DNA from: a phage
DNA length: 64,000 bases
Assembly: GCA_025823825.1 (NCBI GenBank)
Contig: GCA_025823825.1_4720.1
Strand: one strand, 5' to 3'
Under the pieces are notes generated by a model. It saw only the letters and a list, made by a program, of their open reading frames with translations. It was not told the origin of the DNA and ran no database searches. Each line of letters begins with the position of its first letter. The stretch's first letter is position 1. The position numbers and the translations under genes are program-made. This document shows positions 6,024 through 60,063 of this stretch, in pieces.

Positions 6024-6650
6024 ATGGCTGTAACACGCATGACGCCAAGTCCCGGTGCGGTCGGGGTATTCACAGTATCAGCGCCGTTCTCCGTTGGTGC
6101 GTCAACGCTATATACTGTTACAGCGTTGCGAAGATTCAGCGAAGTCATCGGTAGTGGAATCGATCTATTTACGGAACTGTACGAACCGTTATCAATAGAC
6201 AAATCCACTTTCGAAGCGCATCTCGAAGCGAATGCTTATCTCGTCACGTTGCAACCGGATTACGGTGCACCCGTACTGGTACCTGATACGTATATCACGT
6301 CGTACCCAAAGAACGATTCCTTGCGGTATCGTCGCATTATTCTGGGTATCGATTTCGGGCCTCTTCCTCCCGGTCTTGACCTTTCGTATTTAACAACGAT
6401 ATTGAAAGGTAAGGCTAGTGATATTCTTGGTGTCGAACCTGAAGTTAAAACGATGGAAATCACTCTCGATGATACCGTTACTCAGGAACAGCATCAGATA
6501 AACGAAGCCCGTCGTCAGGCTGCGATAAAAGAGCGAGATACCATTTACGCACGCTGTGAAACGCAAGAGAAGCAGATAACGGCTTTACTTGCAACCCAAA
6601 AGCAACTTATCAAATTGCTTCAAGACGCCGGTATCAATCCGACACCTTAA
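6024..6650 (+). CDS. hypothetical protein (208 aa)
   Basis: Track ORF begins at a TTG; the ATG at 6024 has GGAGG 6 nt upstream and overlaps the stop of the upstream gene. Confidence 0.55.
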   Translation: MAVTRMTPSPGAVGVFTVSAPFSVGASTLYTVTALRRFSEVIGSGIDLFTELYEPLSIDKSTFEAHLEANAYLVTLQPDYGAPVLVPDTYITSYPKNDSLRYRRIILGIDFGPLPPGLDLSYLTTILKGKASDILGVEPEVKTMEITLDDTVTQEQHQINEARRQAAIKERDTIYARCETQEKQITALLATQKQLIKLLQDAGINPTP

Positions 6651-6656
6651 CATATT

Positions 6657-6688
6657 CCCTCCTCCTTCCCTGACGGGTTGGAGGAGGG
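6657..6688. terminator. conserved CCTCC/GGAGG hairpin element (family member 1)
   Basis: CCCTCCTCC-TTCCC-TGAC-GGGTT-GGAGGAGGG; flanked by CATAT on the 5' side and TTATG on the 3' side. Confidence 0.6.
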
Positions 6689-6702
6689 TTATGCCGTCAA
6701 GC

Positions 6703-6717
6703 AAAAAAAAAAAAAAA
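6703..6717. repeat. A15 homopolymer tract
   Basis: 15 consecutive A between the two hairpins; on the minus strand it is a U15 run, but it lies downstream of the second hairpin in minus-strand transcription, so it is not the U-tract of a canonical intrinsic terminator. Confidence 0.9.
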
Positions 6718-6722
6718 TGATA

Positions 6723-6755
6723 GTCACAGGCCCTCCAATGAAGGAGAGCCGTGAC
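6723..6755 (-). terminator. hairpin immediately after stop of 6763..7482
   Basis: GTCACAGGCCCTCC-AATGAA-GGAGAGCCGTGAC imperfect inverted repeat; the A15/T15 run is adjacent. Confidence 0.55.
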
Positions 6756-6762
6756 CGTCAGT

Positions 6763-7482
6763 TTAGGATGCGGATAATCTAGCGTACTTCTGTCGAATAT
6801 AGTTCTTACGGCGAACTTCGTCATCCTCGTCACGCCATTCGAGATAAGCAACGAAACGGCGTAACTGTGCCGCAGTCATCGTTGACGATCGGTCTTTTAC
6901 ATCTAGAACGACGTAACGAACGTCATCAACGCCGTCGCAACCAACATAACGGAATACCAAAAGACCGTTATCGTATTCAATGATGATAACTTCGAATCGT
7001 TTCTCGAACAAATAAAACAGTTCTGATTCAATGATCATCGGAACTACGCATTTATCATCATGATCGATGATTTTCATCATCACCCGTAACGCGCGAGGAG
7101 TATGACGAGCGAACTGACCGTCGAAACGTTGTTTCATCGTTTGTTCCACGTCGTCTGTTTTTGTTCCAGGCCAAGGACGCACTACAGATTTCGGTGGTGT
7201 AAGACGGCAGCGGTACGCTTGTATAAACAACAGAATATCAGCAACATTAGGAAATTCATCCTGGTCTTTGTATAGCTTACGGATAATATCCGGGATCGTA
7301 GTCAACAAATATTTCTTATCGCCTCCCACTTTCTCGAGATTAGCGATATGTCCTTCTACCACAGGCTGGTAAACAAAATTATACCAGTGGTGGTATTTTG
7401 CAACGTGTTGGTATTTCGGGATGAGATTAAGAACAGTATTTACTGCGCGTTTTAATGGGTTCATCAGAAGAATCCTTCTCAT
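6763..7482 (-). CDS. hypothetical protein (239 aa)
   Basis: Track ORF; ATG overlaps the stop of the upstream gene (ATGA); last gene of an operon behind the promoter-like motif at ~9.2 kb. Confidence 0.6.
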   Translation of the reverse strand: MRRILLMNPLKRAVNTVLNLIPKYQHVAKYHHWYNFVYQPVVEGHIANLEKVGGDKKYLLTTIPDIIRKLYKDQDEFPNVADILLFIQAYRCRLTPPKSVVRPWPGTKTDDVEQTMKQRFDGQFARHTPRALRVMMKIIDHDDKCVVPMIIESELFYLFEKRFEVIIIEYDNGLLVFRYVGCDGVDDVRYVVLDVKDRSSTMTAAQLRRFVAYLEWRDEDDEVRRKNYIRQKYARLSAS

Positions 7483-7913
7483 GTTTTAATATGCACATCG
7501 TCAATCCCCTCGGTAATCCAGCCGATGGGAAGGACAATCGTTGTTATCGTGTTATGTGTGTAAGGATTAAGAAAATGGAAATAGTAATTTGTGTTGGATT
7601 GTTCGATACGTAGGTCGAGCTGTGCGTCTTCAGGTAACCGTAACCAAGCACCGTACAGTTCATTAAACTTACGCTGAATTTTACCGGGGTTCATTGGAAC
7701 CCCACGACCACGTTGATGCAGCTGACGTAATGATTCAATCAAACACTCAGAGATACCCGTTGTCGTTCCGTTATCGCTCGTATCAACAACGATGAACTCT
7801 CGTGACCCACGACCAAGATAAAAACCAGCAACAAAAGCTGCAGCAACAAAAAATATCGTACCGATACCAATATACCAGTAGTAAGCATCCATAACGGCCT
7901 CACTTATACCCAA
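7479..7913 (-). CDS. membrane protein (144 aa)
   Basis: Track ORF; N-terminal hydrophobic helix YYWYIGIGTIFFVAAAFVAGFYLG. Confidence 0.6.
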   Translation of the reverse strand: MGISEAVMDAYYWYIGIGTIFFVAAAFVAGFYLGRGSREFIVVDTSDNGTTTGISECLIESLRQLHQRGRGVPMNPGKIQRKFNELYGAWLRLPEDAQLDLRIEQSNTNYYFHFLNPYTHNTITTIVLPIGWITEGIDDVHIKT

Positions 7914-8437
7914 TAGTCGGCAAGCGGTTTCACCTTATTAATGGGCAACTGTACTTTACCGATGTTCTCTACATCCGCATCCGCATAGAGAACAATTTTA
8001 TCATCGTCTCTTTCCCAACGAATAATGAATCGACCAGGAAGAAGATTACCCTGTTCAAGAGACGCAGTAACCTGTTGTGTTAAAACAGACAACCAAGCAG
8101 GCATCAGTGTTGCGATGTCTAAGTCATTTGACCACTCAGCGCGTTGCTCCACTGGACGTAACATACGTTCGACGGTGCGTTGAACTGTTGCGGTGATATA
8201 GCCTTTATCTTCGTCACTGATTGGATCAGGGCGAGACACAAAACGTTCAGCAGGCTTGTGGGTAATATACTCATGCAAATCGATGAGTGGTGTTGTCATA
8301 GTACTCGCTCCATCAGAATGTAATTGGGTAACCCGTAGGGTTGTCTGCATGCTATTCAGCAGCGCAAAAGCGCCATAAACAACAATGATACTAAGTACGA
8401 CCAAAACAGAAATCATTAATGTGTATTGCATTGCCAT
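7904..8437 (-). CDS. membrane protein (177 aa)
   Basis: Track ORF; N-terminal hydrophobic helix LMISVLVVLSIIVVYGAFALL. Confidence 0.6.
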   Translation of the reverse strand: MAMQYTLMISVLVVLSIIVVYGAFALLNSMQTTLRVTQLHSDGASTMTTPLIDLHEYITHKPAERFVSRPDPISDEDKGYITATVQRTVERMLRPVEQRAEWSNDLDIATLMPAWLSVLTQQVTASLEQGNLLPGRFIIRWERDDDKIVLYADADVENIGKVQLPINKVKPLADYWV

Positions 8438-8498
8438 CTCCTACTCACACGTATCTTGAAGATTAGTTAAAATCAACAAAAGAAAAAACGATATAAAG

Positions 8499-8526
8499 CA
8501 AGGTCCTCTGATATCAGAGGACCTTG
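8499..8526. terminator. perfect 28-nt palindrome (13-bp stem) inside the operon
   Basis: CAAGGTCCTCTGA-TA-TCAGAGGACCTTG between the genes 8533..9189 and 7904..8437; on the minus strand it is followed by a T-rich run (CTTTATATCGTTTTTTCTTTTG). Confidence 0.55.
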
Positions 8527-8532
8527 GATCAA

Positions 8533-9189
8533 TTAGCTTGCAGCTTCTTCATTTGTATCAGGTTTGCTTCCCCCTAACAAACCGTCAAACAGACCCGTAT
8601 GTTTCAGGTAGAAGAGAGCGATAGCACCCATTGCCGCTGCGCTCGTCGCCGTTAACGCAACCCCAGCACGATACTGCCATTTACGGTCAGGCTTTTGATC
8701 AAGCGCCATACGACGCATGTATTCAGCCTCTGCTTCATTCCGATGAATTTCGGATTCAGCCAAGCGGGCTAAGGTATCGCGGTCAAGGTTATCATAACGT
8801 ACGTTCATGGTGGTTTCCTCTTGTTTGGAAGTTGATTGCTTAGTGGATTCTTGGTCAACAGTCGTTTCAGATGGTTCAAACGGCTGGTTGTTCATTTTCT
8901 TATCTTTATCGGACATGATGGACTCCTTCGATTTTTGAGATGAAATTGATTTAAACCATCGTGGATGGCGGTATTCTGTTTTACATGTACAGTTAAGTTT
9001 CTCGTGCAGGAAAGCGTAAAAACGTTTTGCGCCTACACGTAAGGCTTTCAGCATTACCCATCCACGAGCACTCAAACGGTGTAGCTGTTGCGGTATGTCT
9101 AGTTTCCTAGCCAAGCGAAAGTATCTTTCAATCACTTCGATAGGAAACCATTGTTGTTCCACATCGGTGAGACTGAAAGTCTTATCCAT
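8533..9189 (-). CDS. C-terminally membrane-anchored protein (218 aa)
   Basis: Track ORF; C-terminal hydrophobic segment GVALTATSAAAMGAIALFYL. An in-frame internal ATG at 8916 has a strong AAGGAG upstream and could be the real start (127 aa). Confidence 0.5.
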   Translation of the reverse strand: MDKTFSLTDVEQQWFPIEVIERYFRLARKLDIPQQLHRLSARGWVMLKALRVGAKRFYAFLHEKLNCTCKTEYRHPRWFKSISSQKSKESIMSDKDKKMNNQPFEPSETTVDQESTKQSTSKQEETTMNVRYDNLDRDTLARLAESEIHRNEAEAEYMRRMALDQKPDRKWQYRAGVALTATSAAAMGAIALFYLKHTGLFDGLLGGSKPDTNEEAAS

Positions 9190-9212
9190 GAATGAAATCT
9201 CGCTGGCTTACT

Positions 9213-9237
9213 TCACCTAAGTAATATAGCCGTGAAA
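9213..9237 (-). promoter_or_regulatory. promoter-like motif, copy 1 (TATATTAC core)
   Basis: Minus-strand reading TTTCACGGCTATATTACTTAGGTGA, about 25 nt upstream of the ATG at 9189; near-identical to the copies at 21.76 kb and 58.6 kb. Confidence 0.55.
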
Positions 9238-9339
9238 AATGTTGGATTAAGTTAAATACTGCAACCGTAACTGATTTTATGGGCTTTTAGCCTAAACCAA
9301 TCATCTTCGGAATCATCATCTTTGAAACAGGAATCTATC

Positions 9340-10161
9340 ATGGAAAAAGTATTTGTTTGTAAGTTGTTTACCAACGGCAATAGCCAACCAATGTATCTGA
9401 CCGATCCTGTTCTAGGTAATCGGAACAGTACCGTATTCAAAGAAGCTTTCGAATACGCTAAAAATAAAGCCGTGAGAACACTGACGTCTGATGACTGTAT
9501 CAACGGTATCACGTGGGCAGAGTTATTCGGTGATGCTGTTAGACACTTCGTTCAGGACGCAAGAAAACAGGAAATCAGTCTCACGACTATCGTTGTGCGC
9601 GAAAACGCAGAAATTTTATCAAACGTTTTGGTTGATTTTAATGACGTTTGCGTGTTTAATCCAGAGAACACGTTTGAACAATATCTTACTGCCCTGAACA
9701 ACCAGCTCGGTAAAGATATTCATCCCGAATTCGCCAAGTTAACGTATCAAGTGCTTTTTAACGACGTCGATCCAAACACAAAGATCAACACCAGCTTATC
9801 GCCCCTGGTAAAGAAATACGGATCGGTTCTTGCTACGGCAACACCCACCACCGATGGCGGTTACGATATCGAATTGGATGGTCCATTAAAAGAACAAGAG
9901 CCTACTGGGGTTCGGGCGGTACATCACAACCTCGTCGTTAAATCTGATGGATGCGATGAACATTACGCTATGATGAACGATGAAAACAATTACCGTTTAA
10001 GTCAAGCGATTGGTGTTCTACGCTATACCGAACCCACTGTTGTAGACGATTATACATCGACAACAACACACACCACATGTTTCATTTTCATCTACCCCAA
10101 TGAAAGTGTGTACATTACTGACTGCTACGGCAACACTGTAGATAGCTTACGTCGTTACTAA
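9340..10161 (+). CDS. hypothetical protein (273 aa)
   Basis: Track ORF 9322..10161 trimmed to the first ATG (MEKVFV...); followed by a terminator. Confidence 0.6.
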   Translation: MEKVFVCKLFTNGNSQPMYLTDPVLGNRNSTVFKEAFEYAKNKAVRTLTSDDCINGITWAELFGDAVRHFVQDARKQEISLTTIVVRENAEILSNVLVDFNDVCVFNPENTFEQYLTALNNQLGKDIHPEFAKLTYQVLFNDVDPNTKINTSLSPLVKKYGSVLATATPTTDGGYDIELDGPLKEQEPTGVRAVHHNLVVKSDGCDEHYAMMNDENNYRLSQAIGVLRYTEPTVVDDYTSTTTHTTCFIFIYPNESVYITDCYGNTVDSLRRY

Positions 10162-10495: not shown

Positions 10496-10804
10496 ATGAG
10501 CAATTTGAACGTTGAATTTACTTCAACAACGCCTGTCATGAATGGTGTTGGCACTGAAACCAAAATCGTATTAGAACCCATTCCAGGGTTACGTGATCTC
10601 GGTGATTTTTATCAACTGATGCCGCGTATACGGAAGGCCTTAAACAGCATCGATCTTGATTCCAATAAAGATTTCCAACACGATACAGAAAATACTGATC
10701 ATGTATTGCTACCATCGGGGATCGCAAAATTCACCTACACGCAAACATTGAAAGCCTCCGATGGTGAAATCCGTCGTTTTATCGTTGAAGTAGAAAGCGC
10801 ATAA
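10496..10804 (+). CDS. hypothetical protein (102 aa)
   Basis: Track ORF, followed by a conserved hairpin. Confidence 0.55.
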   Translation: MSNLNVEFTSTTPVMNGVGTETKIVLEPIPGLRDLGDFYQLMPRIRKALNSIDLDSNKDFQHDTENTDHVLLPSGIAKFTYTQTLKASDGEIRRFIVEVESA

Positions 10805-10808
10805 AAAC

Positions 10809-10840
10809 CATCCTCCCAACCCGTAAGGGAAGGGAGGATG
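10809..10840. terminator. conserved CCTCC/GGAGG hairpin element (family member 2)
   Basis: CATCCTCCC-AACCC-GTAA-GGGAA-GGGAGGATG between convergent genes; flanks CATAA ... ATATG. Confidence 0.6.
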
Positions 10841-22464: not shown

Positions 22465-22496
22465 CCTTCCTCCAACCCAGCAGGGAAGGAGGAAGG
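22465..22496. terminator. conserved CCTCC/GGAGG hairpin element (family member 4)
   Basis: CCTTCCTCC-AACCC-AGCA-GGGAA-GGAGGAAGG, 12 nt downstream of the stop of 22508..23401; CATAAACATAAA on the 5' flank. Confidence 0.6.
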
Positions 22497-22507
22497 GAGA
22501 GATTAAA

Positions 22508-25142: not shown

Positions 25143-27191
25143 TCAAATACCTTTGGTTCCCTTCACGTGATGTGCGATTTCTTCAACCATTGCACGCAGA
25201 GCACGAAGCTGTTGGTCGTGTTCGTACCAACCGCCTAACAGAACCCCGCTATACACCATGGTGTCAAGACTTAACAGTCCTTTATCTGATACGTTGATCA
25301 TTTCAGGGAACTGTTCTTGAACACGCTGTGCGATAACACCGATCTTCTCTACATCAGGATCGTAGTTGTGGCGGAAACGGGCAAGCCCGCTGCGCGCCAT
25401 TTCGCGTAAACGCTCACTAAGAGACTCTGGGTGGTCTTTCAGATAACGGATGTCGTGTTTACTGCGCTCATCCGAGCGAATGTATGCGTTAGGAACATCG
25501 ATGTTGCTGTTGAAGTACAACGCACTACCACCACCTGCAGAGTTCCCCCAATAGAAGCGTGTGATCTCACCGCCGCCATTCTCCGTGATGATGACATGTT
25601 TACCTAAACGCGTACCACCATTACCATCAACGAAGACCAGTTTGTTTCCGCTGTAAGAACCCCAGAACAAGCGTGTATCGATGATGTGTGTTGCAGCGAG
25701 ACGGGCGTTACGTGGTGTAGAATACACGGTGTTAACATCTTGCTGTGCATGCGCATCGGAAGCGATACCGTAGTTCTGTACGTTACCTAACCCAACCTGC
25801 GCTTTCGTAACAGCATGAGGGTTATCCCGACGGTTAGCGTGAGCGTTAACCAGATCGCCCGCTAATTTCTGAATTGCCCAGTTGGTAGACTGTGGTGTCA
25901 TGTAACGGTTAGTTGCAGAACCACCTTGCGCTTCAGCTTGGTTAGCGGTTGGGTAGTTCTCAACACTTCCTAACCCTACTTGTGCTTTAGACACTTGGTG
26001 TGGGTTATTCTTGTCAGCGATGTGTGCATTAAGCGGAACTAACGCAAAGGTCTCAATGGACGCTTTGGTTGTGTTCGGTGCCATTAATCGGTTAGCTGCA
26101 ACACCGGCACGCGCTTCTTCTTCAGAAGCCATTGGGTAGTCTTGCACATTCCCCAACCCAACCTGCGCTTTGGTTACCCTGTGTGGGTTGTTGTAATCGG
26201 CTTTATGCGCATTAAGTGGGATCAATGCGAACTGTTCAATCGCTGCAGCGGTGCGTAGCGGCGTCATGAAACGGTTGTTCGCTGTTCCGGCTTTCGCCTC
26301 ATCATCCGAAGCGGTCGGGAAGTTATCAACGTTCCCAAGGTTAACCTGCGCTTTCGTAACAGCATGAGGGTTATCCCGACGGTTAGCATGCGCGTCGACT
26401 AGATCGCCTGCCAGTTTAGCAATCGCCCATCCAACCGTCTGTGCCGTCATGTAACGGTCAGGTGCAGTACCGGCTTCTGCCTCCGCCTTGTTTGCGGTAG
26501 GATAGTTCTGTACGTTACCTAGTCCGACTTGGGCTTTTGTTACTTCGTGCGGGTTATCGGTACGGTTAGCGTGAGCGTAATGCAGATCGGTCAGATCTTT
26601 ATCCGCCGCTTGCATGTCTTTGCGTAGCTGATCGATTGCCGCCCAGAGACGGTTATCGGACGCAGCATCACCGATAAGTATTGCGGCCTTCAGTGAGTAG
26701 ATCGCTAAGCAAAGATGTTCGGTACCGTAAATAGCACTAACGTGGTGGATGTGTGGTTCAGGCGGATAGAGTTCCGGTTTGTTCTTGATGTCGTCCCAGT
26801 TGATCGGACGATCGTCAAGTTTGAGTTCTTCGATAGCCTGATATAACGCGTCAATAAGACTTACGTAAACACCACCGATGATACGATAGTCGTTAATTAA
26901 CGTCCCCTCGATATCATCGTTGATGATGGCGATCGCCGCACAGATTTCTTTACCTGCGTAAAGCGTCGCATCCTGATACAAGAAGATGGGTTTATAATCC
27001 ACGCCTCGTACCAGTGTCTTACCGGTAAGCTTTTCAGTGATGACCAGACTTTCGGTAAAGAACGGTCCGCCATCAAGGGCGTAACATTTATTCTCGGTTC
27101 GTGGAACGGTATGCTCTTCACCAACGATGTGGTTGCTGGCGAGTGTACCGGTCCAGTCCTCGGGGTACTTCAGGGTAATTGGTGTCGACAT
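25143..27191 (-). CDS. tail fibre protein with repeat array and C-terminal intramolecular chaperone domain
   Basis: Five repeats of about 55 aa, each with NPH.VTKAQVGLGNV.N[YF]P.A...EA.AGT; C-terminal ...SDERSKHDIRYL... resembles the autoproteolytic chaperone domain (peptidase S74-like) of tail fibres and spikes. Confidence 0.75.
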   Translation of the reverse strand: MSTPITLKYPEDWTGTLASNHIVGEEHTVPRTENKCYALDGGPFFTESLVITEKLTGKTLVRGVDYKPIFLYQDATLYAGKEICAAIAIINDDIEGTLINDYRIIGGVYVSLIDALYQAIEELKLDDRPINWDDIKNKPELYPPEPHIHHVSAIYGTEHLCLAIYSLKAAILIGDAASDNRLWAAIDQLRKDMQAADKDLTDLHYAHANRTDNPHEVTKAQVGLGNVQNYPTANKAEAEAGTAPDRYMTAQTVGWAIAKLAGDLVDAHANRRDNPHAVTKAQVNLGNVDNFPTASDDEAKAGTANNRFMTPLRTAAAIEQFALIPLNAHKADYNNPHRVTKAQVGLGNVQDYPMASEEEARAGVAANRLMAPNTTKASIETFALVPLNAHIADKNNPHQVSKAQVGLGSVENYPTANQAEAQGGSATNRYMTPQSTNWAIQKLAGDLVNAHANRRDNPHAVTKAQVGLGNVQNYGIASDAHAQQDVNTVYSTPRNARLAATHIIDTRLFWGSYSGNKLVFVDGNGGTRLGKHVIITENGGGEITRFYWGNSAGGGSALYFNSNIDVPNAYIRSDERSKHDIRYLKDHPESLSERLREMARSGLARFRHNYDPDVEKIGVIAQRVQEQFPEMINVSDKGLLSLDTMVYSGVLLGGWYEHDQQLRALRAMVEEIAHHVKGTKGI

Positions 27192-30871: not shown

Positions 30872-33025
30872 TTATAACGTTTCGAAGTCGGTTGCTTTGA
30901 TAACCGCGTTGAAGTTGGCAAGGAATTCCTTAAGCAGTGCTTGGAAGACATCACGAAACGCTGTGTTCGTCTGCAAGCTGGTTAAATAATCGTTCTTAAG
31001 GTAATCGCTCAGCTTACCGATCTTCTGCATCTTCTCGCCGTCTTGGTTCTCTCCAGGTTCTTGGCTGTTGATGTTAACCCATTTGATCCCTTCGAGATCG
31101 CCATCGGCAAGGAAGTTGGCGGGTGTCTCATCGTCGTTCAGGATTTTAATCGTATCACTGGATTCAATGCCACCGTAAGCTTCCAGAAGCTGGTTGACTG
31201 TTAGCTTATTGGTGTTGATTGAACCATTGACACCATCGATACCGATGCCTGCACCTGTGATGGATGTCGCCGAAAGATCGATCGGTCCGGTTAACTTACC
31301 ACCGTTGATCGGTAACGCACCAACTTGCTCAGCGGTGTGTGTGTGGCCAGCTAACGCCGCAAACGCCACGATAGACTTATACGTCGAATACGGCGTCATA
31401 TACGCTGATTGGTTGGTGTTGTCAGCCGCTTCAGTATCGGTAGCAACATTAAAGTTCTGCACGTTGCTGAGACCGACCTGCACCTTCGTTACTTCATGCG
31501 GGTTGCTCTTATTGACAACGTGTGCTGCAAAACCATCACCAGCTAAAGCAGTGATTGCCGCTTTTGTCGCAGCCGGTGTCATATAGCGGTTGGTTGCTTC
31601 ACCCGTTTGCGCCTCTTCGTCGGAAGCAACAGGATAGTTCTCAACGCTTCCCAAACCGACCTGAGATTTTGTTACTTGGTGTGGGTTTTCGGTATTCGCA
31701 ATATGACTACTGAACCCTTGACCCGCCAGTTGCTCGATTGCGTAACGAACAAGTATTGGTGTCATGTACTTGTTGTTAACTTGACCATCGATAGCTTCTT
31801 GGGTGGTGGCAACCCCGAAGTTTTGCACGCTCCCCAACCCAACTTGCGCTTTCGTAACAGCGTGGGGGTTATTGGTGTTACCGATGTGATCGGTAACCGT
31901 TGGGGTGATTAATCCTGCGATAGCGGCTGCCGTGGTCGCAGGGGTCATGTATTTATCGTTAGCAACACCCGCAGCAGCTTCTACGTTAGATGCTACACCG
32001 TAGTTCAATACATTTCCTAACCCAACCTGAGCCTTGGTTACCCCATGTGGGTTATTGGTGTTGCCGGTATGGGTTGTCAACGTAGCGTTAACGTTATCGA
32101 TACGCGTGCTTAAGCCATCGGTGATTGCTTTGATTGCGGCTCGTACGCCCGCTGGTGTTGTGTACAGATTTGTGGCCGTACCGGTAATGGTTGTATTACT
32201 ATCAGCTACACCGTAGTTCTCAACGTTTCCGAGTCCCACCTGGGCTTTCGTTACCTTGTGTGGGTTGTTGTAGTTGCTGATGTGCGCAGCAGCACTATCA
32301 CCACTCAGGTTAGCGATCATCTTACGCGTCATCGCCAACGTCATGTACAGATTTTCACCGATGGTTTCCAGATCGCTCTCGGTCGCCGTTGTGAAGTTCT
32401 GAACATTCCCCAATCCAACTTGAGCCTTGGTTACCCCGTGGGGGTTATCGCGACGATTCTCGTGCTGCAGCAATGCGGTCATTGCTTTATTGAACCCTTC
32501 TTCAAGCGGTTCTTTCAATGATTCGATTGCCGCCACCACATCGTCCCACGTCATTGTGTCGGTTTCGACATTATGTTGGTGGTTGATTGGTGGGAATACG
32601 GAAGGAACGTCGGCAACCTTTTCCCAGAACGTAACGCGGGGATCGTAAAGGTTGTTGGCTAAAACGTTAAGAATTTGTTGTTGATCAAGTGTAAACTCAC
32701 CCCCCAGTGAATAGTAGTTCAGTTGCAACTGTCCACTGAATGCGGTGTCCAACAGCATGATGGAACCGTATAATTCCAGGCCGGTCAGCGCAGCCATGGC
32801 ACGGAAGGGGTGAGTGCATAAAAAGTCAACGCCTTCTTCCAGATACGCGTTTGTTTCATGGTTGTAGATCTTTAACCCATTACGGAAATATGGCGCGTAT
32901 TTAGGAACGAGAAAGTTAAATCCGGTCCCCGTGGAAGGACGGACAGTGACGAGTTCTTCTGGAACCCATGCGCCATCCAAATTCCCCTGCGGGTTATACG
33001 GAAGGCGTTTAATTTCATCTGTCAT
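30872..33025 (-). CDS. tail fibre protein with about 7 tandem repeats (717 aa)
   Basis: Repeats NPH[GA]VTKAQVGLGNV.NF/Y...A.AG..N.YMTP; C-terminal HTHTAEQVG. Confidence 0.7.
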   Translation of the reverse strand: MTDEIKRLPYNPQGNLDGAWVPEELVTVRPSTGTGFNFLVPKYAPYFRNGLKIYNHETNAYLEEGVDFLCTHPFRAMAALTGLELYGSIMLLDTAFSGQLQLNYYSLGGEFTLDQQQILNVLANNLYDPRVTFWEKVADVPSVFPPINHQHNVETDTMTWDDVVAAIESLKEPLEEGFNKAMTALLQHENRRDNPHGVTKAQVGLGNVQNFTTATESDLETIGENLYMTLAMTRKMIANLSGDSAAAHISNYNNPHKVTKAQVGLGNVENYGVADSNTTITGTATNLYTTPAGVRAAIKAITDGLSTRIDNVNATLTTHTGNTNNPHGVTKAQVGLGNVLNYGVASNVEAAAGVANDKYMTPATTAAAIAGLITPTVTDHIGNTNNPHAVTKAQVGLGSVQNFGVATTQEAIDGQVNNKYMTPILVRYAIEQLAGQGFSSHIANTENPHQVTKSQVGLGSVENYPVASDEEAQTGEATNRYMTPAATKAAITALAGDGFAAHVVNKSNPHEVTKVQVGLSNVQNFNVATDTEAADNTNQSAYMTPYSTYKSIVAFAALAGHTHTAEQVGALPINGGKLTGPIDLSATSITGAGIGIDGVNGSINTNKLTVNQLLEAYGGIESSDTIKILNDDETPANFLADGDLEGIKWVNINSQEPGENQDGEKMQKIGKLSDYLKNDYLTSLQTNTAFRDVFQALLKEFLANFNAVIKATDFETL

Positions 33026-34420: not shown

Positions 34421-34452
34421 CCCTCCTCCAACCCATCAGGGAAGGAGGAGGG
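34421..34452. terminator. conserved CCTCC/GGAGG hairpin element (family member 5)
   Basis: CCCTCCTCC-AACCC-ATCA-GGGAA-GGAGGAGGG; flanks CATAA ... AATATG. Confidence 0.65.
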
Positions 34453-34461
34453 AATATGCTG

Positions 34462-48340: not shown

Positions 48341-49777
48341 TTACTTTTTCGATGACGCCTTCTCAAGAATCTTGAAAAAGGTCATACCTATACCGACAAC
48401 AGCCGCGGTTATGCTTGCAGCGGCTTTCCAAACATCGACGTTACGTTGACGTCGCGCTTCTTCCGCTTCACGTTGTCTTTTTGCCTCTTCATCACGTCGA
48501 CGTATCTCAGCAGCAAACTCGTCGTGCTTACGTTTGGATTCTTCGTCTCGACGACGAAGTTCAGCGACGAATTCTTCATGTTTGCGTTTAGCCTCGTCAT
48601 CACGACGTTTTAAATCAGCTTGATAATCTTCATGTATTTGTCTACGTAGATCATCTTGACGTTTCATTTCGGCTTGGTGTTGTTCCATCCTACGTTTTTG
48701 TTCGTCTTTAAGCTGATCGAGTTCGGCTTTATGTTGTTCATCACGCAGCTTTGCATCAGCGCGATGCGCCTCATGCATCTGTGCGATAACTGCCTTGTGT
48801 TCATCCGCCATACGTCGCATTTCAGCCATCACCCCTTTAAGGGTTTCTTCTGATGCCTTACGTTCGTAGCTACGCTGGTCGAAATCATTTTTGTAGGCTT
48901 CTTTTTGGATGGGGTCGCGCCAATGCAATGCCGACTCACGTGTCGGAAAAACATTGTACTTCCACATCTCTTTTTCCAAATCTTCGACCGGTACGAAGAT
49001 GGAGTCATTATTCCCGAAGGTAACCAACATACCTGGCGCGCCTGCTCCATTCGTTGGTTTTATTTCGAACGCTTTCCCCAACACGTTAACCCATAAGCTA
49101 TACGGATTATGAAAGTCGGGCGGCGTCCAATGGATAGTGAGTTGTGTTCCGAGAATCCGGAAACCCTCTGTTTTTCCCGTCAAGCTCCGCGCGCACGTTG
49201 CGATGTAGGGGTGATCAATCCCTTTCGTAACGTGGTCTGCGCTTTTGTATTCTCCTTTAACTTTTACGATTGCCACGTTGATTTGCGCGACATAAGCAGG
49301 TTGATTAAAGTTCAACGTGTTGAGGTCAATTTGACATATTTCATCCAGCGTATCGTACCAGTCTTGCTGGTCTAATAGACGCGGCATTTTCTCTGTGTTA
49401 ACAATACGACGGATATGCGGTTTCCTTATCGCATAACCTGTGCCGTTTTTAACACGGAGTATATCCCGACGTCTACCCGCGTAGACGAAGTTTCTGAATG
49501 CACCATTCGCATTAGATACGTCATGGCTGTCAACTATTACAGGACTACGAAATTTTGAACGTCGTACGATCCTGAATGTATTGCCGTCCTCAACCCTACC
49601 AGGAATGTACTGGAACATATTGTCGGAGGTGATAACCAACACGGTATGGCCAGATTCGTTAATACATGCCCATCCTAATTCCAGGTCATATAACGGTTCA
49701 GCATAACCGTCAATGCGATAAGCGTGCGTACCATCCCACGGTTCGAACGCGGTATCACATATTGGCATGGAGGGCAT
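48341..49777 (-). CDS. tail-anchored protein with long Glu/Arg/Lys-rich helix (478 aa)
   Basis: ATG at 49777 with GGAGG 6 nt upstream; about 120 aa of ...RRDEEAKRKHEEFVAELRRRDEESKRKHDEF...; then a C-terminal hydrophobic segment AAASITAAVVGIGMTFF. Confidence 0.6.
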   Translation of the reverse strand: MPSMPICDTAFEPWDGTHAYRIDGYAEPLYDLELGWACINESGHTVLVITSDNMFQYIPGRVEDGNTFRIVRRSKFRSPVIVDSHDVSNANGAFRNFVYAGRRRDILRVKNGTGYAIRKPHIRRIVNTEKMPRLLDQQDWYDTLDEICQIDLNTLNFNQPAYVAQINVAIVKVKGEYKSADHVTKGIDHPYIATCARSLTGKTEGFRILGTQLTIHWTPPDFHNPYSLWVNVLGKAFEIKPTNGAGAPGMLVTFGNNDSIFVPVEDLEKEMWKYNVFPTRESALHWRDPIQKEAYKNDFDQRSYERKASEETLKGVMAEMRRMADEHKAVIAQMHEAHRADAKLRDEQHKAELDQLKDEQKRRMEQHQAEMKRQDDLRRQIHEDYQADLKRRDDEAKRKHEEFVAELRRRDEESKRKHDEFAAEIRRRDEEAKRQREAEEARRQRNVDVWKAAASITAAVVGIGMTFFKILEKASSKK

Positions 49778-49927
49778 CGTCAACCTCCATCAGATTGAAA
49801 ACTATCACGCATAATACATTTCCCTTTTTCTTGTTCTTATCAAGCCGACAGCCGACGGTTTCAGCATCGTTCCTAGCGCGAGAACGACCTTACGTGTTGT
49901 CTATGCCTTATTCATCGCAGGCGTCTG

Positions 49928-49952
49928 TCACCTAGGTAATGTAAGCGTCAAA
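49928..49952 (-). promoter_or_regulatory. degenerate copy of the promoter-like motif
   Basis: Minus-strand reading TTTGACGCTTACATTACCTAGGTGA matches the consensus at 19 of 25 positions, about 150 nt upstream of the start of 48341..49777. Confidence 0.35.
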
Positions 49953-49986
49953 TTTTTTCTATTCGCAACGATAAACGGCATAGAAA

Positions 49987-50016
49987 CCTCCCCCAACCCT
50001 TACGGGCTGAGGGAGG
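49987..50016. terminator. conserved CCTCC/GGAGG hairpin element (family member 7)
   Basis: CCTCCCCC-AACCC-TTACGGGCTGA-GGGAGG, downstream of the 740-aa gene; on the minus strand it is followed by TTTCTATGCCGTTTATCG. Confidence 0.55.
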
Positions 50017-54781: not shown

Positions 54782-54813
54782 CCCTCCTCCAACCCGTAAG
54801 GGAAGGAGGAGGG
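54782..54813. terminator. conserved CCTCC/GGAGG hairpin element (family member 8)
   Basis: CCCTCCTCC-AACCC-GTAA-GGGAA-GGAGGAGGG between convergent genes; T7 run on the minus strand; GGGGTTATG on the 3' flank. Confidence 0.65.
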
Positions 54814-54829
54814 GTTATGACCGCTTTGA

Positions 54830-56272: not shown

Positions 56273-56719
56273 TTAGAAATTATTGCCGAACTGGTTATGG
56301 TTATATGGTTGGTAGTGTCCGTAATTACCTGGGAAGCCACCATACGGCACAGGCTCCGGTTTAGGGATTTCCATGGTCGGATTTTTGGAATTGATTGCCA
56401 TCACGTAAATTGTTACGGGTGATACCGCGCGATTCATTTCGACGGCCACACGACGGATGTAGCCAACGTATGCTGTTATTGCAGGCATTAGCTTGTCCCC
56501 TTCGGTAGTTATAACGGTACCATCAGAAAGAATCTCGCGAACCGCGCACCATTTACCAAGATGAACGCCTTGCTGCGGCTTTATTCCAGTAGCGATAGAG
56601 AGATAGGTATCGTACGTCGTTTGATGATTCGGATGGCTATAGATAGATTCTGCTTTGGTTTCGTCTTTTCCTAAGTATTCGCCTTGCATGGGGGTAGGAG
56701 TTGATGAAGAATGTGGCAT
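56273..56719 (-). CDS. paralog-family protein, short member (148 aa)
   Basis: Shares HP..TTYD.YL.I, W..VREI..DGT and LAIDSKNP/MAINSKNP with the next two genes. Confidence 0.6.
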   Translation of the reverse strand: MPHSSSTPTPMQGEYLGKDETKAESIYSHPNHQTTYDTYLSIATGIKPQQGVHLGKWCAVREILSDGTVITTEGDKLMPAITAYVGYIRRVAVEMNRAVSPVTIYVMAINSKNPTMEIPKPEPVPYGGFPGNYGHYQPYNHNQFGNNF

Positions 56720-56830
56720 GTTCGATTCTCCTTCGAGTTGTTTGATCGATTGTTCAACTGGTACTGATTACGATTGGTTGATAACAGTAGAGCTACCGCT
56801 TAAAAACTCTACCGTTGTTTAGATACCGTA

Positions 56831-57691
56831 TTAGGATATACGGTGCATCGTCGGTGCGATTGGTCGTTGACCAAGGTAGAATGTATATCTCGGACGATTC
56901 TTCGGTGCCTGGTTTGGTTGAGGATTCTTCGAATCGATAGCTAACACATAGTACTGAAGTGTGGGGTTGAGTGTCGTCAGATAGTTTCTGATGAACTCCT
57001 TGTTTAAACTTTCAGTCGGGGTTAATACATGTCCGTTGATTGTAACGACGGTGCCGTCGGAACGTATTTCACGAACAATGCACCAGGCCCCCGCACCAAC
57101 ATCGGTAGGGATAGTCGTGCTGGGTGTGATGGTTAGATATTTATCGAAGAATTCGCAGCAAAGAGGATGCTTATAGACCGTTACGGTATCATCTCCTGGC
57201 GAGGTTCTCTCTTTTGTTACAAGATCCATTGCTGGTACGAAAGTGTTGATTTTGGCAACCTTATCGGCATCTTCGTTCGCTTCGATATAAATCTCTGCTT
57301 TACCGTACACGCTCTGAACTAAACGACGTAACTGTTCGTATGTTTTCGGTGAGGTTAGCTGCACCCGACTGAGCAGTTCATCGTACCAAGCTTCGAAGGT
57401 GCTTGTTGGTATCTTAACGTATGCCTTATTCCCGGTTTCATTTTCATCCCGGAAGATAATCGCAACGGTATCAGGCTCGTCAAGAGAGTCCAGGTAAACG
57501 ATGTGCTCGACCAACGCAGAAAATGTCTTACGTCCAATTCCCCCATAGTACGGGATTGCTGAATGAACCAGCCGCCAGTTACATGAAGTTTGGATATGAT
57601 CGAAGGCGTTGATCATGTTTTTACTATAACGAAAAATTTCAGTAAAATATTCTTTACGTTCTTTACTAAGACGTTTGTATATCTTGGTCAT
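56831..57691 (-). CDS. paralog-family protein (286 aa)
   Basis: C-terminal domain ...YKHPLCCEFFDKYLTITPS...WCIVREIRSDGTVVT...YVLAIDSKNP; N-terminus MTKIYKRL parallels MTDIYQKL in 57745..58545. Confidence 0.6.
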   Translation of the reverse strand: MTKIYKRLSKERKEYFTEIFRYSKNMINAFDHIQTSCNWRLVHSAIPYYGGIGRKTFSALVEHIVYLDSLDEPDTVAIIFRDENETGNKAYVKIPTSTFEAWYDELLSRVQLTSPKTYEQLRRLVQSVYGKAEIYIEANEDADKVAKINTFVPAMDLVTKERTSPGDDTVTVYKHPLCCEFFDKYLTITPSTTIPTDVGAGAWCIVREIRSDGTVVTINGHVLTPTESLNKEFIRNYLTTLNPTLQYYVLAIDSKNPQPNQAPKNRPRYTFYLGQRPIAPTMHRIS

Positions 57692-57744
57692 TTTTGTAGC
57701 TCCTCGATTAAAGTAAAGATGAACGCGATCATTTATTATCGCTT

Positions 57745-58545
57745 TTAGTTTTTACCATTCCCCCAGCTAGGTTCTTCGTAGAAATGATGCGGATAACCAG
57801 AGTAGGAACCCATGACACAAGAGGCCGTTTCTTTTCGTGAATCGATGACCAGCGCATAAAACTGTCTGAGGTTCGACAACATAGAGAAATAAGACGACAG
57901 CACTTTTTCGTTTAACGCATCGCACGGTAAGCAGGTGCGACCGCAAAACGTCACAATACGGCCATCAGGATAGATCTCACGAATCATTCGCCATTCACCG
58001 ATGTCGACCGGCGACGGTGTAGATGTACCGCCCGTTATTGTTAAATATCGGTCGTACGTAGTACGGCATTCAGGATGAACGTAAATCGGTTGGGCATCAA
58101 TACTATCGTTTTCTGTTTGATCTTTACTCACGTATACCTCAAGGTAGATTGTTGGTAACCCGGTTAGAACGCCAGTATCACGACGTTTTTTGGTAATCCG
58201 GGGACGGATATTATCGAGCACGCCTTCCAGTTTTTCTGCGACTTCGTCAGCCGGTAATATATACCCGTATGTTGGTTCTGGGTCATCATCGTGGCTAAAT
58301 AAGATACGACAGTCGTTTTTATTAAATTCTATATCTTCAGGTGGGAAGATGATGACGCGAACCGTATGGCGTTCTGCGATATAAAATCCTTCAGGCCCCT
58401 CAGTTTTGGTAAGTGTAAAGGACCAGGATGAATGATCTTCAAGTGACGTGCCTGCCAGGAAAAAGTCCGCCCGAATTGGTGCGTTCCATTTCGCGATCAT
58501 ATTGGCGTGACCAATAACGCCTAATTTTTGATAAATATCTGTCAT
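57745..58545 (-). CDS. paralog-family protein (266 aa), first gene of the operon
   Basis: C-terminal domain ...YVHPECRTTYDRYLTITGG...WRMIREIYPDGRIVT...YALVIDSRKE; the promoter-like motif lies about 60 nt upstream. Confidence 0.6.
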   Translation of the reverse strand: MTDIYQKLGVIGHANMIAKWNAPIRADFFLAGTSLEDHSSWSFTLTKTEGPEGFYIAERHTVRVIIFPPEDIEFNKNDCRILFSHDDDPEPTYGYILPADEVAEKLEGVLDNIRPRITKKRRDTGVLTGLPTIYLEVYVSKDQTENDSIDAQPIYVHPECRTTYDRYLTITGGTSTPSPVDIGEWRMIREIYPDGRIVTFCGRTCLPCDALNEKVLSSYFSMLSNLRQFYALVIDSRKETASCVMGSYSGYPHHFYEEPSWGNGKN

Positions 58546-58600
58546 GATTGTATCCTCGGTTATTAAGAGAAATTTACAGTGATAACAGTAACCGTTGTCA

Positions 58601-58625
58601 TCACCTTAGTAATATAGCCATGAAA
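58601..58625 (-). promoter_or_regulatory. promoter-like motif, copy 3 (TATATTAC core)
   Basis: Minus-strand reading TTTCATGGCTATATTACTAAGGTGA; differs from copy 1 at 2 of 25 positions. Confidence 0.55.
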
Positions 58626-58659
58626 TAAACTGGAGTAACGCGCTTAAGACAGCATAGAA

Positions 58660-58691
58660 CCCTCTCCCAACCCATAAGGGAAGGGAGAGGG
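58660..58691. terminator. conserved CCTCC/GGAGG hairpin element (family member 9)
   Basis: CCCTCTCCC-AACCC-ATAA-GGGAA-GGGAGAGGG just downstream of the stop of 58696..60063; CATAG on the 5' flank. Confidence 0.65.
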
Positions 58692-58695
58692 AATA

Positions 58696-60063
58696 TTAAA
58701 CGGTTGGACGAACGGTGTTGTCTTTTTCTGGTGCAAGCCATAACGTGACCGTACCATGACATGTCCACTGTGGTTCACGTACAGAAGAACCTGCCATTGT
58801 AACAGCGCAATCGGTACGCATGATAACCCCGTATGCTTCGCAGAGATTGTTATCCTGCATCCACACAACTTTAGCAGGCATGCCGGGATACAACATATCC
58901 ATGTTTGCGTACTCCCACACCAACTGCATTGTCCTGCCGCGTAATCCAGCAGTATTACTTAATTCACGCCATCGGTTATCGGTTACGCGTCCCATCCCTT
59001 TCGCCACCTTCACGTTATCGCTACGTTCTTCAGTTACGTACTCGCTAACGTTTACGGTACGACTGATTATTGTATCGCCCCCTTTTGATAATGTCATTCC
59101 CTGACTCATCTGACTTGCCGAAACAAAACGCCCACCCGCATTACCTAACAACGAAGCCGCGTTATTGATGTCGCTTACCGACGCCCCTCTCGTACAGGCG
59201 ATTTCCACGTATTTGTCACGATTGATCCAGGTCTTGTCCATACCCGGAAACATATCGGCAGGATAGTTGTAAAAGATAGCCGTACGGCGACCATCAGAGA
59301 AACGGGTTTCGTCGTAGAGAGGATAAATATACAGATACGGGGATTGATAATAACAACCGACGTCCGCTGAATAAATACCGACCTGGTTCTGGATTTTGTC
59401 TACGAGATCCATTGCGTTGGTGCCATGCGGAAGAATAAGCAACTTGAACAGGTTGTCGTTATTCGGTGCAACAATGTCTACACCCTGCATTTTGAATCCG
59501 GTGTCAGCTTCGACCGCAGAAAGTATCTTGCTGAATTCGAGTCGTAACACATCCAGAACTTTCGACCCAGTATAGTTTTCACCGGTTTCTGATTGCATGA
59601 AGCTTTCAAGAACAGGATCGAACAGTTGAAATTGAAGATCGACCATTTGTTCGTAGTCTTTCTTCGAAGAATCGGTTGCGGTACGTTCGTCGTTAGCAGA
59701 CATACGACTGTCTACGGTTGTTAAACAAACCGCTCGGTAGACGTAAGCTTGTGCAGCATCGTCTACGGTTTGGCGTTGTCCGCGCATCAGGCTGTACGCT
59801 TGCACGATGATGCGCATTTTAAGTTGTTGTTGGTACGGTAAGATGTATTTTCCGTAACTGCCTGGCGGGAACTTTACAGAGATATAAAGTTCATCTCCTG
59901 CGTTACGTTCATAGTCTCGATACGTGTGGACTTGAGTCACTAAAGGAACAGACACCGTCATTGACGGCGTGATTAATTCCGCGGTGACTTTATACGCAAC
60001 AGCAACTGCTTCCTGCGCAAATGTACCGATATACCGTCCTAACGGCGTCTGTTTGTAATCCAT
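58696..60063 (-). CDS. hypothetical protein (455 aa), last gene of a virion-type operon
   Basis: Track ORF; followed by a hairpin terminator; the upstream genes overlap it in series. Confidence 0.6.
   Translation of the reverse strand: MDYKQTPLGRYIGTFAQEAVAVAYKVTAELITPSMTVSVPLVTQVHTYRDYERNAGDELYISVKFPPGSYGKYILPYQQQLKMRIIVQAYSLMRGQRQTVDDAAQAYVYRAVCLTTVDSRMSANDERTATDSSKKDYEQMVDLQFQLFDPVLESFMQSETGENYTGSKVLDVLRLEFSKILSAVEADTGFKMQGVDIVAPNNDNLFKLLILPHGTNAMDLVDKIQNQVGIYSADVGCYYQSPYLYIYPLYDETRFSDGRRTAIFYNYPADMFPGMDKTWINRDKYVEIACTRGASVSDINNAASLLGNAGGRFVSASQMSQGMTLSKGGDTIISRTVNVSEYVTEERSDNVKVAKGMGRVTDNRWRELSNTAGLRGRTMQLVWEYANMDMLYPGMPAKVVWMQDNNLCEAYGVIMRTDCAVTMAGSSVREPQWTCHGTVTLWLAPEKDNTVRPTV

Follow-up and report, generated by a model that had tools for sequence, protein, structure and literature searches.

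A candidate early operon encoding predicted membrane proteins, with an internal hairpin, in a Goslar-like jumbo phage

Genes and features of the locus

The subject of this study is a group of four genes on the minus strand at positions 6763 to 9189 of a 64,000-nucleotide stretch of phage DNA (GenBank assembly GCA_025823825.1, contig GCA_025823825.1_4720.1), referred to here as the window. From the upstream end the genes are called A, B, C, and D; a motif resembling the early promoters of phiKZ-like phages precedes A, and a perfect palindrome lies between A and B. From 6500 to 9700 the DNA matches the start of Escherichia phage vB_EcoM_Goslar at 94.4% identity. Goslar belongs to the Chimalliviridae and is the E. 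coli model for nucleus-forming jumbo phages; its nucleotide 1 corresponds to window position 6664. The genes and control elements are as follows.

9211..9239, minus strand: early promoter motif (virion RNA polymerase type), TTTTTCACGGCTATATTACTTAGGTGAAG, scoring 38.5 bits with a position weight matrix (PWM)
8533..9189, minus strand: gene A, homologue of Goslar_00004 (gp4), 218 aa, 98% protein identity
8499..8526, minus strand: perfect 28-nt palindrome, RNA hairpin with a 12-bp stem and a 4-nt loop
8478..8498, minus strand: T-rich tract, read from the sequence as an interrupted U-tract (CTTTATATCGTTTTTTCTTTT)
8438..8477, minus strand: conserved leader of B, with the box GTTGATTTTAAC (8477..8466), GTGTGAG (8450..8444), and the ribosome-binding site AGGAG (8442..8438)
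7904..8431, minus strand: gene B, homologue of Goslar_00003 (gp3), 175 aa, 98% protein identity
7479..7892, minus strand: gene C, homologue of Goslar_00002 (gp2), 137 aa, 93% protein identity
6763..7464, minus strand: gene D, homologue of Goslar_00001 (gp1), 233 aa, 82% protein identity
6657..6756, minus strand: end of the unit, with a hairpin (~6722-6756), a T15 run (6703-6717), and a second hairpin of the CCCTCCTCC...GGAGGAGGG family (6657-6694)

All four Goslar genes are annotated "hypothetical protein" in GenBank. The minus-strand open reading frames proposed in the initial annotation of this DNA were retained, but the start codons of B, C, and D were moved after comparison with relatives. 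The start of B was placed at its second ATG (8431, 175 aa), because the first ATG is missing in the relative L005 and the Goslar annotation uses the second. That of C was placed at ATG 7892 (137 aa) and not at TTG 7913, and that of D at ATG 7464 (233 aa). In five sequence sets all four genes were under purifying selection, with ratios of nonsynonymous to synonymous substitution rates (dN/dS) of 0.03-0.27, and of 0.03-0.20 for A alone; we conclude that they are real genes.

When each protein was searched by tblastn against 50,697 phage genomes, Goslar was the only match. Among 1.84 billion representative proteins, a profile of A detected two distant homologues, P0013 and P0014. Scans of IMG/VR returned near-identical genomes only and none for these two homologues.

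A predicted early promoter heads the block

A PWM was built from 11 copies of the promoter motif and scanned over the whole window. It found exactly four sites, with scores of 30.6-38.5 bits; the next best site scored 10.8. The four copies, at 9239, 21773, 49954, and 58627, are all on the minus strand. The promoter-like motif that the initial annotation had noticed ahead of A is thus real, being one of four PWM sites at 30-38 bits. Its core, TATATTAC, lies at 9228..9221 inside TTTCACGGCTATATTACTTAGGTGA. This core is that published for phiKZ early promoters, and a longer consensus has been given for 201phi2-1, OBP, and N1M2 (PMC7058600, Table 2); the window motif matches both. Early promoters of these phages carry an AT-rich element of ~10 nt centred near −10 (PMC7598289). 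The likeness to the promoters of phiKZ, 201phi2-1 (TTTRARR-BTATATTACDWHDGTG), OBP, and N1M2 includes the AT-rich core, the TTTCA upstream of it, and the TGA/GTG downstream; there too several copies are found per genome, each heading a block of small hypothetical genes. The extended consensus, TTTCAnGnCTAyATTACyTAnnTGA, differs in being lineage-specific. The motif is invariant in relatives whose upstream flank is unrelated (L005, L007, L011, L012, L013, and L015).

Expression was examined in Goslar, whose DNA is 94% identical to that of the window phage without being the same phage. The Goslar copies of the motif, at 2576, 15076, 43275, and 49741, lie directly upstream of gp4, gp21, gp40, and gp47, and head the blocks gp4-1, gp21-14, gp40-37, and gp47-44, respectively. 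Supplementary Table 2 of Armbruster et al. (bioRxiv 10.1101/2023.09.20.558163 v2) gives Goslar read counts at 30 min both for controls and for cells in which the shell protein ChmA was knocked down. In the latter, infection halts at the vesicle stage and the transcription profile is an early one (bioRxiv 10.1101/2023.09.20.558163). In the knock-down, gp1-4 had log2 fold changes of +0.17 to +1.28, and the neighbouring genes gp5-13 of −2.8 to −7.6, a 7- to 190-fold fall. Among gp1-50, four blocks were not reduced (gp1-4, gp14-21, gp37-40, and gp44-47; log2 fold changes of ~+0.2 to +1.4), and every other gene dropped by 2.5-7.6 log2 units. The four unreduced blocks are exactly those headed by the motif. 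This match ties the motif to early, nucleus-independent transcription and places gp4-gp1 in the early class. The transcripts of phiKZ-like early promoters behave likewise when nucleus formation is blocked, as those of phiKZ persist after chmA silencing (PMC12571901).

A scan for sigma-70 promoters gave 8 sites, compared with 12.1 in shuffled sequence, and none was suitably placed to drive the genes. From the consensus fit, the position of the motif at the head of early blocks, and the unreduced RNA of gp1-4 without ChmA, we conclude with considerable confidence that genes A through D form an early operon of a Goslar-like chimallivirus, as the initial annotation had supposed in placing one unit behind the motif.

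The module is conserved in further lineages

A profile search with C gave additional homologues, and the contigs obtained from the searches with A and C (L010-L016) include a sister lineage, here called clade 2. Compared with the Goslar-like relative L007, four of five flanking genes in clade 2 are 57-66% identical (encoding DUF7194, 446-aa, 183-aa, and RNase H proteins) and the fifth 42%. The promoter motif stands 25-45 nt before A, and the sequence upstream of the motif is unrelated. The homologues of A, B, and C are only 25% (E = 7e-12), 22% (E = 6e-8), and 27% (E = 8e-17) identical, respectively, and D is replaced by unrelated genes. Between A and B there is a GC-rich hairpin of 10-11 bp with a wholly different stem (−15.9 to −19.0 kcal/mol) followed by U7-8, and then a leader in which a box of the GTCAAATTTGAC type and a GTGAG box are spaced as in the window. 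A third lineage, represented by the 1.7-kb contig L011, contains the promoter, A, a hairpin and U-run, and the leader, after which a B-like gene begins with a hydrophobic stretch. The distant homologues P0013 and P0014 have the same architecture as A. Among the three proteins C is the best conserved across lineages (E = 8e-17 with L010).

On these comparisons the unit of conservation is the promoter, A, the putative terminator, B, and C, with D as a variable passenger, a point that the initial annotation missed. Across lineages the identities of A, B, and C are 22-34%; in the comparison between genera they are 25-34%, set against the 57-66% of four flanking genes and the 42% of the fifth. Such divergence, far beyond that of the neighbouring genes, together with purifying selection within the Goslar group, is the pattern usual for accessory proteins that face a changing partner. 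The restriction of the proteins to the Goslar group and their fast divergence argue against a core role.

In L011 the gene upstream of the module (70-510) encodes a protein with a SUKH_5/SUKH_6 (immunity-protein-like) domain; the neighbourhood on the upstream side is therefore variable. Homologues of B and C, in protein clusters P0004 and P0018, are filed under genome assemblies of Salmonella enterica Enteritidis and E. coli, and the A cluster comprises 251 sequences that come from public sequencing runs. From such deposits Goslar-like phages seem to be common passengers in enterobacterial sequencing data.

B and C have strong N-terminal hydrophobic helices

Hydrophobicity was scored as the Kyte-Doolittle average over a 19-residue window (KD19) and as the summed apparent insertion free energy of Hessa (dGapp). 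The N-terminal helices that the initial annotation had seen in B and C proved to be strong and conserved. In B the predicted transmembrane helix spans residues 7-25 (nt 8357-8413; KD19 2.78, dGapp −2.6) and in C residues 8-26 (nt 7815-7871; KD19 2.15, dGapp −0.4). No other segment in the 52 genes of the corresponding Goslar region is as hydrophobic as these two, and they are kept in every lineage, with KD19 of 1.75-2.93 and dGapp of −2.6 to +1.8 across all of them. B and C alone score as single-pass proteins; D has no hydrophobic segment and is a soluble, co-transcribed protein.

In no lineage is there a Lys or Arg before the helices of B and C, where C has a single acidic residue; of the 15 residues that follow the helices, one to three are basic. 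By the positive-inside rule this distribution of charge indicates an N-out/C-in orientation, and the soluble domains of B and C are accordingly predicted to face the cytoplasm. In B the helix is followed by a linker and a C-terminal domain for which a medium-confidence model predicts an alpha-alpha-beta-beta-beta-alpha order; C has a C-terminal domain after its helix. Foldseek searches with the B model against the PDB and BFVD gave nothing at E <= 1e-3. The gp25/TssE/IraD-like alpha/beta fold that the domain of B brings to mind, with no such Foldseek match, is a lead and not an assignment. B and C were also considered as paralogues, a relationship discarded at a BLASTP E value of 19.

With A, B, C, D, or the distant homologues as queries, Pfam and PHROGs yielded no meaningful match, and none had an E value below 0.008. 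D matched no Pfam family. PDB sequence and profile searches with A, C, and D gave no significant match, the weak one of D being to NucS_C (E = 0.12).

In mass spectrometry of Goslar virions (Table S4, bioRxiv 10.64898/2026.04.21.720040), gp1, gp2, and gp4 are absent among the entries listed, and gp3 appears as a trace, with a single peptide and ~0.26 copies per virion. As far as these entries go, gp1-4 are not virion proteins. Of the two outcomes that the initial annotation named as refuting its view, a lack of transmembrane helices and detection in virions only, neither was seen, given the hydrophobic helices and these virion entries.

Protein A has a weaker C-terminal segment and putative internal starts

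Protein A consists of a conserved N-terminal domain (~1-80), a polar disordered linker, a helix (~137-165), a Gly/Ala-rich hydrophobic tail, and a short acidic end. Its AlphaFold2 model has a predicted local distance difference test (pLDDT) score of 38, so only the secondary structure was used and no fold search was made. A helix-turn-helix or other DNA-binding domain at the N-terminus was a first impression from the sequence that no search supported. Three features within the gene are relevant here.

8914..8928, minus strand: internal ribosome-binding site AAGGAG (8928..8923) and in-frame ATG (8916..8914, Met92 of A), kept in L005 (77% identical)
8806..8820, minus strand: internal ribosome-binding site GAGGA (8820..8816) and in-frame ATG (8808..8806, Met128 of A), which would yield a 91-aa product of helix plus tail
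8605..8667, minus strand: hydrophobic C-terminal segment of A, residues ~175-195, a possible tail anchor

The C-terminal anchor assigned to A in the initial annotation is plausible, in that a hydrophobic tail exists, but it is not established: for residues 177-195 KD19 is 1.76 (the usual threshold is 1.6) and dGapp ~+1.1 kcal/mol. The tail in L011 has a Kyte-Doolittle score of 1.82, above the threshold like that of the window. In clade 2 it scores ~1.0-1.1, with dGapp of +4.7 to +5.0, and forms a Gly/Ala zipper (e.g. IGMYTLAAGAIAGVGYAGY). Four to five basic residues precede the tail and the short end after it is net neutral or acidic, a pattern that fits a cytoplasmic N-terminus.

These values leave room for A not being a membrane protein at all. 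The Gly/Ala-rich tail would then serve oligomerization or protein binding, only B and C would lie in the membrane, and A would be recruited to them or act elsewhere. The clade 2 scores and the marginal ones in the window favour such a soluble A, and large soluble proteins of the same genome reach similar scores. Yet the segment is always C-terminal, always has basic residues on its N side, and is the most hydrophobic stretch of the protein in all lineages, and the tails of the window and L011 exceed the threshold. Small-xxx-small motifs, moreover, are typical of packed transmembrane helices. We regard a soluble A as rather unlikely. Insertion of A might depend on packing against other helices.

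C-tail-anchored inner-membrane proteins of this general kind are found in bacteria (ElaB/YqjD/YgaM, DUF883). A resembles them in its helical cytoplasmic part, its Gly-rich hydrophobic C-terminus, and its lack of an N-terminal signal. It differs in having no Pfam match even at E <= 1, a weaker tail, an additional N-terminal domain, and internal starts.

The spacing from ribosome-binding site to ATG is 7 nt at both Met92 and Met128. At least one such pair (AAGGA or GAGGA, 7 nt, ATG) is present in the linker of every lineage, despite the poor conservation of the linker peptide. Among the 52 Goslar genes 3 of 396 internal in-frame ATGs have such a site, two of them in gp4, whereas half of the annotated true starts do. 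These starts escaped the initial annotation. Judged from the sequence, A is probably made both as the full protein and as a short form of 91-127 aa comprising the helix and tail only. The pattern does not fit a holin/antiholin dual-start gene, as A is an early gene, its internal starts lie 91 and 127 codons downstream, and no lysis genes are adjacent.

The third such ATG is in gp47. The annotated start of gp47 lies upstream of its own early promoter (49741) and is probably wrong (Goslar 49584-49772, L006; window ~58540-58660); the real start is probably the internal ATG with the good ribosome-binding site. A second early protein with a tail-anchor-like end is the Goslar gp40 homologue (window 48341-49777, minus strand, 478 aa), the first gene behind promoter copy 3 (49926-49954). 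It ends in a long charged helix (RRRDEEAKRKHDEF repeats), a Gly/Ala/Thr-rich hydrophobic segment (AASITAAVVGIGMTFFKIL, KD19 1.76), and a basic terminus, and it is not among the listed entries of the Goslar virion mass spectrometry.

A hairpin between A and B marks a partial drop in RNA

The perfect 28-nt palindrome reported in the initial annotation between the first and second genes is present, and a T-rich tract, CTTTATATCGTTTTTTCTTTTG, comes after it. The hairpin at 8499-8526 has a folding energy of ~−22.7 kcal/mol (z = −5.4; none of 200 shuffled sequences folded as well), and 7 of its 12 base pairs are G-C. The chance expectation for such palindromes in 64 kb is ~2e-4. After the stem the window has CUUUAUAU (5 U in 8), then CG, and then U6. 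In clade 2 and L011 an uninterrupted U7-8 follows the stem immediately. The palindrome carries a putative-terminator annotation in Goslar. In six Goslar-like sequences the stem is invariant, though the flanking genes differ at synonymous divergences (dS) of 0.7-1.1. L010, L011, L012, and L013 have hairpins with differing stems at the same position, so that the hairpin-terminator element is kept across lineages as a feature and not as a sequence. Because a MAFFT alignment misaligned the lineages, the covariation analysis was discarded and each hairpin was folded separately.

Relative to gp4, the Goslar read density per kb of gp3+gp2+gp1 was 0.36 when ChmA was knocked down (0.36-0.37) and 0.65 in the control (0.60-0.69); infection stage confounds this difference. 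A second early promoter between A and B was considered and rejected, since the best PWM score in the window spacer is −4.3 bits. With no early promoter in the spacer and with the RNA of B through D unreduced in the knock-down, read-through from the single promoter is the simplest account. On that reading about one to two thirds of the transcripts would end at the hairpin and read-through would supply the RNA of B through D, and we think the hairpin is probably a leaky terminator. Leaky intrinsic terminators in phage and bacterial operons likewise consist of a GC-rich hairpin and a U-rich tract between cistrons, and likewise give a partial fall in RNA downstream; the enzyme here would differ, being the phage multisubunit virion RNA polymerase. 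As for the attenuator proposed in the initial annotation, a setting of the expression ratio is plausible from the drop to 0.36-0.65 and the hairpin with U-run in three lineages. Nothing points to regulated attenuation (no search for alternative structures was made), and a leaky terminator is enough.

The leader of B (8438-8477) is better conserved than the coding sequence that flanks it. Its layout recurs in clade 2 and L011, with 28-29 nt from the U-run to GTGAG in all three lineages; the 12-mer box is GTTGATTTTAAC in the window and GTCAAATTTGAC or GTCATCTTTGAC in the others. This leader could be a promoter, an operator, or a translation element. Its conservation, and the two boxes at fixed spacing in three lineages, would be accounted for by two units in place of one: an efficient terminator would end a monocistronic A, and B, C, and D would be transcribed from a promoter of their own in the leader, active in the vesicle stage. 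The canonical U7-8 tracts of clade 2 and L011 are like those of strong terminators; the clade 2 leader weakly resembles an early promoter with the spacer shortened by 2 nt (3.8 bits, 99.99th percentile); and the ratio of downstream to upstream RNA differs between control (0.65) and knock-down (0.36). The window leader, however, scores −4.3 bits compared with 30-38 for real early promoters, and the interrupted U-tract in the window is what would be expected of a leaky terminator. Middle or late promoters should be silent in the ChmA knock-down, yet B through D are unreduced, and the host RNA polymerase should not reach DNA within the vesicle. We consider the arrangement in two units unlikely.

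In bacterial operons it is well established that stem-loops between cistrons can bring about differential decay. A hairpin acting mainly as an RNA stabilizer or processing site, which would protect the 3′ end of A mRNA so that it outlives that of B through D, would suit the very stable stem and the nature of the published data, which are steady-state read counts only, but it is very improbable given the U-rich tract that follows the hairpin in every lineage, a signature of intrinsic termination that a stabilizer does not need.

A side observation concerns the same spacer. Between the window and L007 the divergence is mosaic, with a dS of 0.17 for gene A and 0.81 for gene B (8431-8533 was compared with L007 and L008), which implies that a recombination breakpoint lies in or close to the A-B spacer and hairpin.

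Proposed mechanism and function

In the account that we propose, the injected virion RNA polymerase would start at 9211-9239 and transcribe A. The GC-rich hairpin and interrupted U-tract (8478-8526) would halt part of the polymerases, and the remainder would continue through B, C, and D as far as the strong terminator at 6703-6756, leaving A mRNA ~1.5- to 3-fold more abundant than that of B, C, and D. The conserved cargo would be A, B, and C. B and C would be single-pass proteins with an uncharged or acidic N-terminus outside and a soluble domain in the cytoplasm, and A would carry its N-terminal domain on a long flexible linker tied to the helix and the weakly hydrophobic Gly/Ala-rich tail. 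The three would assemble on the cytoplasmic face of a membrane soon after infection. They may serve as an accessory, lineage-specific device at the host interface, excluding competitors or countering a membrane-associated host defence, and not as core replication machinery. The option of counter-defence arises because hosts have membrane-associated systems, Juk and Dionysus, that attack the early vesicle (bioRxiv 10.1101/2025.09.30.679545).

As a whole, from the early unit and leaky terminator through the membrane trio to its role at the host interface, this account is in our judgment slightly favoured. The function assigned to the trio, as an accessory membrane-anchored host-interface device, is put forward tentatively and by itself is somewhat doubtful. 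Several points weigh against the account. The support from RNA consists of read counts per gene, taken at a single time point in a related phage, and the excess of A over B reads could equally reflect mRNA stability or a separate promoter. The canonical U-run in clade 2 and L011 suggests efficient termination, which makes a promoter in the conserved leader of B more likely. The topology comes from simple hydropathy and charge counting, and for the tail of A the transmembrane scores are marginal in the window and fall below the threshold in clade 2. A complex of A, B, and C is itself conjectural, which makes the function a plausibility argument.

T4 Imm and Sp and P22 SieA are phage membrane proteins of superinfection exclusion. 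The trio resembles them in being small, early, membrane-associated, non-virion, and lineage-specific. It differs in lacking sequence or profile similarity to them, in having domains predicted to be cytoplasmic and not periplasmic, and in forming a three-protein module with an internal terminator. The view in the initial annotation was that such proteins are envelope-facing exclusion or remodelling factors, which in the present case would act in the periplasm or at the injection site in the manner of Imm and Sp. Early expression, membrane helices, lineage-specific and fast-evolving sequences, and absence from virions all agree with that view. It sits poorly with the predicted cytoplasmic domains of B and C, with only a tail of ~23 residues of A outside, and with the lack of similarity of A, B, C, or the distant homologues to any known exclusion family in Pfam, PHROGs, or the PDB. 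Goslar co-infections, moreover, are seen with several DNA foci or nuclei per cell, an observation on co-infection and not on delayed superinfection. A periplasmic or injection-site role therefore seems distinctly unlikely.

A variant of the proposed host-interface role concerns the vesicle itself. A, B, and C, each moving few residues across the bilayer, could insert without Sec into the vesicle membrane from the cytoplasmic side and there mark, shield, or tether the vesicle; we regard this as a long shot. The mRNA would leave the vesicle and be translated next to it, and possible roles would be protection from vesicle-targeting defences such as Juk or Dionysus, or transfer of the genome to the forming nucleus. 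The number of N-terminal domains on display would depend on the two forms of A, long and short.

The standard promoter and terminator type of the family and the hypothetical genes in GenBank were already known, and early expression could be read from the published table. What is new is the link in Goslar between the motif and the early blocks, the module of A, terminator, B, and C, the predicted cytoplasmic orientation of B and C, and the internal starts in A. We found no paper that assigns a function to gp1-4, and the terms 'membrane protein' and 'transmembrane' were not found in the text of a 2025 Annual Review of these phages. For the early lipid vesicle of Goslar, with its building, protection, and handover to the protein nucleus, gp2, gp3, and gp4 are candidates to test, since they are early, nucleus-independent, non-virion, membrane-anchored (marginally so for A), conserved as a set, and fast-evolving. 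For annotation of this phage group the analysis offers an early-promoter matrix, a conserved, probably leaky terminator, and probable nested translation products; if the proteins have an ordinary accessory function, its value is limited to annotation.

Other features of the window

The region at the end of the unit (6650-6765) folds at −55.4 kcal/mol (z = −7.2) and contains members of repeat families D4, D5, and D9. The second hairpin there belongs to a family of long GC-rich intergenic hairpins (CCCTCCTCCAACCC...GGGAAGGAGGAGGG) that is found at 6657-6694, 22465-22502, 34421-34458, 54782-54819, and 58660-58697, and also at 10813-10836 and 49990-50013. These hairpins probably act as shared terminators, possibly in both directions, and the Goslar GenBank record has its arbitrary start inside the first of them.

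The gene at 10496-10804 (plus strand, 102 aa), situated 1.3 kb away from the early operon, corresponds to Goslar gp7, a protein reported to have >200 copies per virion and a member of the nucleus-dependent class (log2 fold change ~−6.8). Directly behind promoter copy 4 (58599-58627) the window has a 2.2-kb insertion relative to Goslar (56273-58545, minus strand) with three paralogous genes (148, 286, and 266 aa) whose products have a W-x-x-(V/I)REI-x-(S/P)DG motif in common at the C-terminus; the Goslar counterpart is only a 62-aa remnant, gp47. Finally, two tail-fibre-like genes in the region of Goslar gp25/gp29 (25732-26559 and 31596-32450) contain ten diverged copies of a 183-nt unit, which encodes a repeated protein domain.

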